Of a stretch of 64,000 bases of DNA, positions 21,981-39,866 are shown one piece after another. This DNA is from an uncultured Nitrososphaerota archaeon (lineage in GTDB: Archaea; Thermoproteota; Nitrososphaeria; Nitrososphaerales; Gagatemarchaeaceae): the NCBI GenBank assembly GCA_963718895.1, contig CAVRAG010000003.1, positions 1 to 64,000 on the forward strand. Reading direction: 5' to 3'. Numbering within the stretch: the first letter of the stretch is position 1; each line of letters starts with the position of its first letter. The notes below the pieces were generated by a model, which was given only the letters and a program-made list of their open reading frames with translations, had not been told where the DNA came from and made no database searches. The translations under genes were made by a program, and so were the position numbers.

Positions 21981-22131
21981 CGCCGGGGGTAGGATTTTCG
22001 CCCGAGTCTTCTCGGGATTCGAACCCACGAGACCCGGATGGGTCACAGGCTGTCTTTGGCCAACTCAAGGCCCGCGCATTACTGTGGACGCGAATTGACC
22101 ACTCTGCTCTCAGGCACTGGTGAACCCCGGC
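21981..22131 (-). tRNA. tRNA-Ser(UGA) with four introns (22109-22123, 22082-22096, 22052-22063, 21995-22017)
   Basis: Spliced sequence GCCGGGG TA GCAGAGTGGTCTAATGC G CGGGC CTTGAGA GCCTG TGACCCATCCGGGTCT C GTGGG TTCGAAT CCTAC CCCCGGC G: full type II cloverleaf, G73 discriminator, no encoded CCA; BHB/BHL motif at each junction. Confidence 0.9.
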
Positions 22132-22299
22132 ATTCCCCGGCACCATCGGACTATCTCTTCCCCTTGATAAGGGCTTAAGATGCGGTCCCCGCTCGAGTTG
22201 AACTTCCATCGCGATGTTGGTACCTGCGATGCTGCGGAAGAAGGCTGCTACATAACAAAAAGACTGAAGCCGTAAGATGCTCAACATCTTCGCTCCTTC

Positions 22300-39570: not shown

Positions 39571-39785
39571 ATCCGCCGTTAGCTCGGGGCCGGAGCCTAC
39601 TCGTTCGGAAGTTGGTCCGCCCTCCCAACATCGTCCGGGGCTTCTGCGACGAACGTGAACGATGCGCTGGAGACAAGCTGCGTCCCCGAATCCGGGTCGG
39701 GCACGTACCTCGGCCGAGCGGATTTCTCTCTGGACCGTTTGTCTTTTGGAAGCATTTAAGAATCCTCCAGACCCTTCGATAGTCC

Positions 39786-39842
39786 GGCGGTGAAGCTCGC
39801 CATTAACCGCTCGCAAACGGATTGTGAGCCGATAGCTTCTAC
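39786..39842 (+). ncRNA. Fluoride (crcB) riboswitch
   Basis: GGCGGTGAAGCTCGCCATTAACCGCTCGCAA...TTGTGAGCCGATAGCTTCTAC: P1 GGCGG/TCGCC, pseudoknot GAAGC/GCTTC, GCTCGCAA/TTGTGAGC stem, just upstream of crcB. Confidence 0.88.
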
Positions 39843-39866
39843 CAAAAAACAGCGAGCGGTCAACAA

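Follow-up and report, generated by a model that had tools for sequence, protein, structure and literature searches.

The window analysed here is a stretch of 64,000 nt from an uncultured archaeon (assembly GCA_963718895.1, contig CAVRAG010000003.1). On its minus strand, the 151 nt between 21981 and 22131 read as a tRNA-Ser(UGA) gene of five exons and four introns, as judged from ARAGORN analysis of the spliced product and from spliced alignment; the anticodon lies at 22067–22065. We refer to the introns as I1–I4 in 5′ to 3′ order, to the present genome as G000 and to its relatives by other G numbers. Exon 1 (22124–22131) holds positions 1–8, that is, the 5′ strand of the acceptor stem together with U8, and is separated by I1, a 15-nt intron at 8/9 (22109–22123), from exon 2 (22097–22108), which extends from position 9 to about 20a. 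I2, also of 15 nt (22082–22096), interrupts the D-loop at about 20a/20b. Exon 3 (22064–22081) supplies the remaining D-arm, the 5′ strand of the anticodon stem and the anticodon loop as far as position 37, where the 12-nt I3 (22052–22063) occupies the canonical 37/38 site. Positions 38–59, comprising the 3′ strand of the anticodon stem, the variable arm and the T stem and loop, are encoded by exon 4 (22018–22051); the 23-nt I4 (21995–22017) then splits the T-loop at 59/60, and exon 5 (21981–21994) completes the tRNA with positions 60–73, the CCA not being encoded.

Upstream of the gene, on the same strand, lies a feature that an earlier note on this DNA had overlooked: an exact copy (7/7 nt) of the acceptor 5′ strand at 22141–22135, separated from exon 1 by a 3-nt spacer (22134–22132). 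A TATA-like TTATCAA (22164–22170, minus strand) stands 22 nt upstream of this leader copy and is, by its spacing only, a putative promoter element; similar A/T-rich boxes were seen by eye 24–27 nt before other tRNA genes of G000.

By coordinates, exons of 8, 12, 18, 34 and 14 nt join to a product of 86 nt, which ARAGORN accepts as tRNA-Ser(tga) with seven Watson–Crick acceptor pairs. The long variable arm, G73 and the serine anticodon, all apparent in the ARAGORN drawing and the sequence, are those of a type II tRNA-Ser, in agreement with the proposal of the earlier note that removal of four minus-strand segments restores such a tRNA. Each of the four intron segments occurs once within the 151 nt. 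A split or permuted tRNA gene was considered and ruled out, the five exons being collinear within 151 nt on one strand.

Each intron can be drawn as a motif of the bulge–helix–bulge (BHB) kind with two 3-nt bulges, a 4-bp helix and at least one flanking helix, I3 in a relaxed form. In I1, all four central pairs form (one of them G-U), the CCTG of the intron pairing with exon positions 3–6, and this helix is flanked by an outer exon helix of 2 bp (G1-C11 and C2-G10) and an intron helix of 2 bp. I2 likewise has four of four central pairs and an intron helix of 2 bp, the exon helix being absent. The relaxed motif of I3 has three of four central pairs and stacks on the anticodon stem. The complete hBHBh′ motif of I4 combines four central pairs with flanking helices of 5 bp (the T stem) and 6 bp, and is the minimum-energy fold of its segment. 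This scoring bears out the motif details first given for the four introns. When the whole precursor is folded, the end of exon 2 and the start of I2 are predicted to pair with the start of I3 (approximately 22100–22055, minus strand), leaving their own motifs unformed; this predicted pairing may be incidental.

Motif rules differ greatly in what they can tell. Under our strict rule a BHB motif has four central pairs and a flanking helix of at least 2 bp, and the relaxed rule is looser; because about 120 placements within this G+C-rich 151-nt gene satisfy the relaxed rules, these alone are uninformative, and their enumeration was dropped as a gene finder for being too permissive (about 120 candidates in 151 nt). 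The argument for splicing is therefore carried here by comparison with relatives. A spliced alignment blind to BHB motifs, in which insertions of at least 6 nt were counted, was made for 36 orthologues found by exon similarity. DNA matches in the relatives begin and end exactly at the proposed exon–intron boundaries, and each intron is precisely present or absent: I1 is found in 10 of the 36, I2 in 14 (with hairpin sequences that differ), I4 in five (G000, G001, G009, G056 and G057) and I3 in most, being missing from G001, G022, G012, G009 and G013. Only G000 has all four together. Every exon junction of the in silico product exists as contiguous DNA in at least one relative; exons 1 and 2, for example, are continuous in G019, G002 and G013. 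Within the genus all insertions fall at the same four sites, and in nine genes of the genus the exons are identical at 86 of 86 positions while the introns differ in sequence and length. With its exons identical, this series offers a clean natural experiment in intron gain and loss.

The locus is orthologous, since relatives with and without I1 share one and the same gene upstream, that of a 3-hydroxyacyl-CoA dehydrogenase. This conserved synteny also led us to reject disruption by a mobile element as the source of the differing upstream region. A tree of the dehydrogenase supported only the pairing of G000 with G001 (86/79) and left 8 of its 12 inner branches open. The intron at the I4 site is 21–23 nt long in G000 and G001 and 49–51 nt long in G009 (L012) and in G057 and G056 (L096 and L097), the long introns having the same end bases as the short ones and a different, longer inner hairpin. 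Ser(UGA) genes of other families (L183, L189 and others of family f7, and L018 of G029) have an additional anticodon-stem intron, at about 29/30 to 30/31, that G000 lacks; together with the four of G000, this brings the intron sites of the gene across the order to at least five.

The 62 insertions recovered from the 36 orthologues could be compared with 5959 placements of the same length in the same genes. Strict BHB motifs were present at 33 and relaxed motifs at 55 of the insertions, as against 1.0% and 1.7% of the placements, an enrichment that is not a probability because the rows are related rather than independent. In G051 the four central pairs of the 8/9 intron were read by hand, the aligner boundary being one base off; the other nine carriers likewise have four. 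Among the 10 sequencing runs listed, none that holds the locus is on record as RNA. We conclude from the comparison of genomes that all four segments are very likely true introns, spliced from the transcript of a working gene, and the orthologues thus support the claim from which this study set out, that this is a real tRNA-Ser(UGA) gene whose five exons are separated by four BHB-type introns, including one at 8/9.

As had been anticipated, standard tRNA finders pass over the gene. ARAGORN missed the raw sequence in both the window and an excerpt, with and without its intron option. No Rfam model matched the raw gene at gathering score, and in E-value mode the only match was to tRNA-Sec, at 14.6 bits; the general tRNA model RF00005, run across the whole genome, reported nothing at this locus even at E≤1. 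While the unspliced gene thus fails the RF00005 gathering score of 29 bits, orthologues with the canonical intron alone pass (for example G061 with 50.4 bits and G105 with 49.6 bits). The window's only Rfam match at gathering score is a fluoride riboswitch (RF01734) at 39777–39848 on the plus strand, which scores 39.2 bits where 34 is the gathering score.

RF00005 passes 28 genes in G000; in two complete sister-genus genomes it matches only 31 and 36, and in one complete genome from a different family of the order 42. A partial, motif-blind census of G000 was made with the 41 compact tRNAs of the complete relative G035 as references and ARAGORN for validation; it gave 15,325 spliced alignments with gaps of free length, mostly noise, which length filters and ARAGORN reduced to 36 loci, many isoacceptors being missed. 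Besides the present gene, at least five tRNA genes of G000 with three insertions emerged (C8:570270–570403, C8:1022043–1022175, C8:1026373–1026506, C8:1318506–1318645 and C7:619301–619415), which are Met(CAT), Gly(GCC), Ala(GGC), Phe(GAA) and one of unclear identity; in addition, three insertions were read by eye in Ser(CGA) at C8:1607038–1607214. Neither a four-insertion gene nor a further 8/9 site was found among the other G000 genes in this partial census. Gagatemarchaeaceae thus appear to have many introns in their tRNA genes. In the principal genomics paper on this family, the word ‘intron’ occurs nowhere in the main text. Because the family is intron-rich and the Rfam tRNA model passes few of its genes, annotation pipelines would report as ‘missing’ tRNAs that are in fact present in this soil and peat family. 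Near-identical tRNA loci were also seen twice, on different contigs of G000 (C9/C11, C10/C8 and C1/C5): a tRNA-Pro(GGG), a stretch with Thr(GGU)–Leu(CAG)–Ser(CGA) and a tRNA-like match of 27 bits. This duplication is consistent with the 5.4% contamination, or redundancy, of the draft.

Does the genome have another gene for this tRNA? A blastn-short search of the 3.13-Mb draft with the spliced product found no coherent second copy of Ser(UGA), and the partial census, which did find serine genes with GCU, GGA and CGA anticodons, recovered no other with UGA. Since the completeness of the draft is 80.5%, the portion not recovered could contain a second gene for Ser(UGA). The locus at C8:1607038 was examined as a possible second copy and rejected, for it has CGA in its anticodon loop by eye, the ARAGORN call of ‘Thr agt’ having come from misplaced alignment boundaries. 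The genome does use UCA: across 481 long open reading frames its frequency is 6.7 per 1000 codons.

The machinery that splicing would require is encoded in the genome, as far as can be read from protein and RNA families. Two paralogues of the splicing endonuclease EndA are present (PF01974/PF02778 proteins, encoded at C8:116316–116873 and C7:620576–621121), together with the ligase RtcB (564 bits) and a full-length archaeal RNase P RNA (185 bits), so that G000 would have both an EndA of two-subunit type and a means of joining exons. Among solved structures, one EndA paralogue comes nearest to chain B of entries 3p1z and 3ajv, and the other aligns a Lys at the His of the first paralogue's GIDHAP stretch. 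We take this His to be catalytic, and the two solved entries to be heterotetramers of the broad-specificity kind that such EndA pairs presumably form. The nearest relatives of the catalytic EndA, at 88–93% identity, come from records of Candidatus Gagatemarchaeum stordalenia, Nitrososphaerales and Thaumarchaeota metagenome-assembled genomes, and the host is most likely an uncultured, non-ammonia-oxidising thaumarchaeon of the Gagatemarchaeaceae.

The 7-nt leader copy is closely tied to I1. Among the 36 orthologues it accompanies all 10 that have the 8/9 intron and only 1 of the 26 that do not. This single exception, G033 (L015), belongs to another family and has the copy 2 nt upstream of a gene without the intron, copy and real strand sharing a G-to-A change at position 7; either the intron was lost and the copy left behind, or the copy preceded the intron. 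No such copy was found at the 34 other tRNA genes called by ARAGORN in G000. When 401 genomes of the order were searched with a pattern for 8/9-intron genes that ignores the leader, 34 of them matched, as against 1 of 401 in a reversed control. By family, there were matches in 12 of 96 genomes of f1, with G000 in addition, and in 1 of 1 of f2, 8 of 13 of f7, 9 of 11 of f9, 1 of 15 of f14 and 2 of 2 of f18, while both of the two largest families had 0 of 112. One match, in G098, was discarded as a false positive in coding-like sequence, and G193, which is flagged as unpublished, was left out of the counts.

We parsed 29 genes with an 8/9 intron, 28 from the leader-blind pattern and one (G041) from the similarity search. 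Within the 45 nt upstream, 28 of the 29 have a copy of the acceptor strand, exact in 22 and with one mismatch in 6, although counts of copy and intron overstate independence because the genes are related; in the remaining gene (G119, family f9) the copy is only partial. The copy-bearing genes span six families (among them f1, f2, f7, f9 and f18) and two tRNA species. Spacers between copy and gene range from 3 to 26 nt across the 28 genes, those of 8–26 nt occurring in f7, f2 and f18. Position 7 of the copy tracks the acceptor pair 7-66, with G where position 66 is C in 16 genes and A where it is T in 7; the exception is formed by five f9 genes with a CAT anticodon, in which the copy has A opposite C66. 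The base after the real strand is T in all 29 genes, whereas the copy is followed by A in 13, G in 6, T in 5 and C in 4, which argues that the downstream strand is exon 1. By eye, no consistent complementarity across relatives was seen between I1 and the leader just upstream of the copy.

The CAT-anticodon tRNA of f9 (L207–L211, in G138, G155, G170, G032 and G189) shares its first 11 bases with Ser(UGA) and has both an 8/9 intron and, across a 3-nt spacer, a leader copy identical at six of seven positions; it is conserved in 9–10 of the 11 genomes of the family. The whole unit could have been transferred between tRNA genes.

The motif of an 8/9 intron needs the acceptor 5′ strand. Minimum-energy structures were predicted for the 29 genes with and without the leader. 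Without it, every one of the 29 genes has the real 5′ strand paired with the 3′ strand of the acceptor stem, and in none does I1 form its central helix; the folds do compete for the acceptor 5′ strand, as the earlier note had maintained. Once the leader is included, it is the copy that pairs with the acceptor 3′ strand in each of the 27 genes with a located copy (G001, which was mis-parsed, and G119, where a full copy is absent, fall outside this set), and the real strand is predicted to pair elsewhere. The exact BHB register of I1, with three or four of its four pairs, was predicted in only 10 of these 27 genes. In G000 the predicted I1 helix is slipped by one G, which is unsurprising in a run of G, yet weakens the evidence. 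Ordered splicing, which had been proposed on account of the competing folds, is not required because the upstream copy of the strand can resolve the conflict.

We propose the following pathway for the precursor, in which the steps of RNA processing and the decoy role of the leader are deduced from sequence and predicted folds. Transcription would begin at or near the 7-nt copy; the TATA-like box, by its spacing alone, fits a transcript that starts there. In the precursor the leader copy would pair with the acceptor 3′ strand, and the real 5′ strand, thus freed, could pair with the CCUG of I1 to form the central helix of the BHB. The motifs of I2, I3 and I4 would be compatible with an ordinary cloverleaf, because they draw on bases of the D-loop, on the anticodon stem and on the T stem. 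A two-subunit EndA would then cleave all eight sites and RtcB would ligate the exons. Once I1 had been removed, the real strand, now continuous with U8–A9, would displace the leader copy, after which RNase P would remove the 10-nt leader and CCA would be added.

Three other readings have to be weighed against this. That the gene is a decaying pseudogene, or that only some of the segments are introns and the others tolerated insertions such as an enlarged D-loop, might be suspected from the weak motifs of I2 (no exon helix) and I3 (three of four central pairs), and a 2026 preprint on Asgard archaea, in its treatment of D-arm insertions, warns that some of these may not be introns. Such a gene would nevertheless be the sole Ser(UGA) gene found in a genome that uses UCA, and its exons would have stayed invariant in nine congeners while the insertions varied. 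At the D-loop site, the central helix GTGG/CCAC is the same in 12 of 14 carriers beside hairpins of differing sequence. The contact between D-loop and T-loop that involves G18–G19 is an established feature of tRNA structure, and a 15-nt insert retained next to these bases would upset it. We therefore consider decay or partial splicing very improbable. The upstream copy might, alternatively, be the true exon 1, I1 then being a 25-nt 8/9 intron that holds a second copy of the strand, with no decoy and nearly no leader. Were this so, 23 of the 28 genes would have A, G or C as position 8, whereas the base after the downstream strand is T in all 29 and every orthologue that lacks the intron has T at position 8; the copy in the five f9 genes would mispair with C66; and a single site would hold introns of very different kinds, given the spacers of 8–26 nt in f7, f2 and f18. 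These difficulties render this arrangement unlikely, even though it would leave the 3′ splice site and the central-helix partner unchanged, would place the TATA-like box, 22 nt before the copy, at about the spacing seen by eye before the mature 5′ ends of other tRNA genes, and would give the same mature sequence in the genes with T after the copy (G001, G052, G030, G146 and G162).

Harder to set aside is the view that the copy has no function, being left over from the arrival of the 8/9 intron by local duplication or as a gene-conversion tract, and is simply trimmed with the leader by RNase P. Partial 5′ copies beside a newly disrupted tRNA-Thr gene of Caldiarchaeum, as presented in passages of the report on that gene (PMC3293823), provide a precedent, and G033 retains a copy without an intron. 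A functionless remnant would nonetheless have been kept at 7 nt, exact or nearly so, across six families in which the length (3–26 nt) and sequence of the spacer vary freely; its position 7 changes together with pair 7-66; and, if the copy is taken away, the predicted fold frees the 5′ strand in 0 of 29 genes. We hold this view to be possible, though doubtful, and incline slightly towards the leader copy being a functional decoy, one that, by the folding predictions, probably enables removal of the intron that follows base 8.

Overall, the best explanation of the locus, to which we assign a probability of roughly 0.85, is a working gene for tRNA-Ser(UGA), no other having been found in the genome, whose four BHB introns would be removed by the pathway proposed here; its decoy step, taken by itself, is favoured only slightly. 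Whether the role of the leader extends further we put at even odds: the acceptor-strand copy would then be a required, cis-acting splicing helper for 8/9 introns, long kept in at least six families of Nitrososphaerales and in two tRNA species, and a general element of archaeal pre-tRNA that has yet to be described. If true, this would explain how an intron persists where its motif must compete with a seven-pair G-C stem; the leader copy offers a concrete and testable answer to the problem of removing an intron whose motif needs the acceptor strand, and as a sequence signature the copied strand could help tRNA finders locate introns close to the 5′ end.

Previous statements on intron number and position place the gene in context. 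The maximum of three introns per tRNA gene given in the earlier note is indeed that given in passages of a 2014 review (PMC4033280) and, as ‘up to three’, of the 2021 paper on tRNAscan-SE 2.0 (PMC8450103), but it no longer holds, since the 2026 Asgard preprint reports, in the part concerned with intron numbers, single tRNA genes with up to five intervening sequences; four introns in one gene are thus no record. The statement that 8/9 is not a commonly listed site also stands in part: the list in one review (3/4, 20/21, 22/23, 25/26, 29/30, 30/31, 45/46, 53/54, 56/57, 59/60, ‘etc.’; PMC4090602), which is open-ended, does not include it, whereas the pattern occurs in 34 of 401 genomes of the order. 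No paper on an 8/9 intron or a copied acceptor strand was found among titles and the beginnings of abstracts, and an 8/9 intron may have been annotated before.

Among the closest known counterparts are the multi-intron tRNA genes of Thermoproteales (Sugahara and colleagues, as reviewed in PMC4033280 and PMC4090602). As related in the relevant passages of these reviews, they resemble the present gene in having several short BHB introns at canonical and non-canonical sites, a two-subunit EndA and an intron content that varies between close relatives. The gene described here differs in belonging to the class Nitrososphaeria, in having four introns rather than the stated three and in using a site outside the list in PMC4090602; it also has a leader copy of the acceptor strand, which those passages do not mention. 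In the Asgard archaea, according to the sections of the 2026 preprint on tRNA gene structure, the majority of tRNA genes are interrupted, annotators overlook insertions in the D-arm and introns have been gained and lost repeatedly, much as in the present case; that phylum is a different one, insertions in the acceptor stem or its junctions are few and are grouped there as ‘other’, and a leader element is not described in those sections.

Of the same phylum and of the same kind are the non-canonical thaumarchaeal introns treated in the tRNAscan-SE 2.0 paper, certain passages of which note that introns near the 5′ or 3′ end need flanking sequence for their detection (PMC8450103); the same passages differ from our findings in their limit of ‘up to three’ introns and do not mention a copied acceptor strand. 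A parallel to the leader itself is the tRNA-Thr of Caldiarchaeum subterraneum, where, as in G000, a spare 5′ part of a tRNA lies upstream of a gene with an extra intron. There, in the account of that locus within PMC3293823, the copy is a 27-nt fragment, a 1.9-kb mobile insertion lies between, and the arrangement is read as a by-product of recombination; the copy described here, in contrast, is 7 nt long, lies 3–26 nt upstream, within what is presumed to be the transcript, and stays conserved from one family to another.
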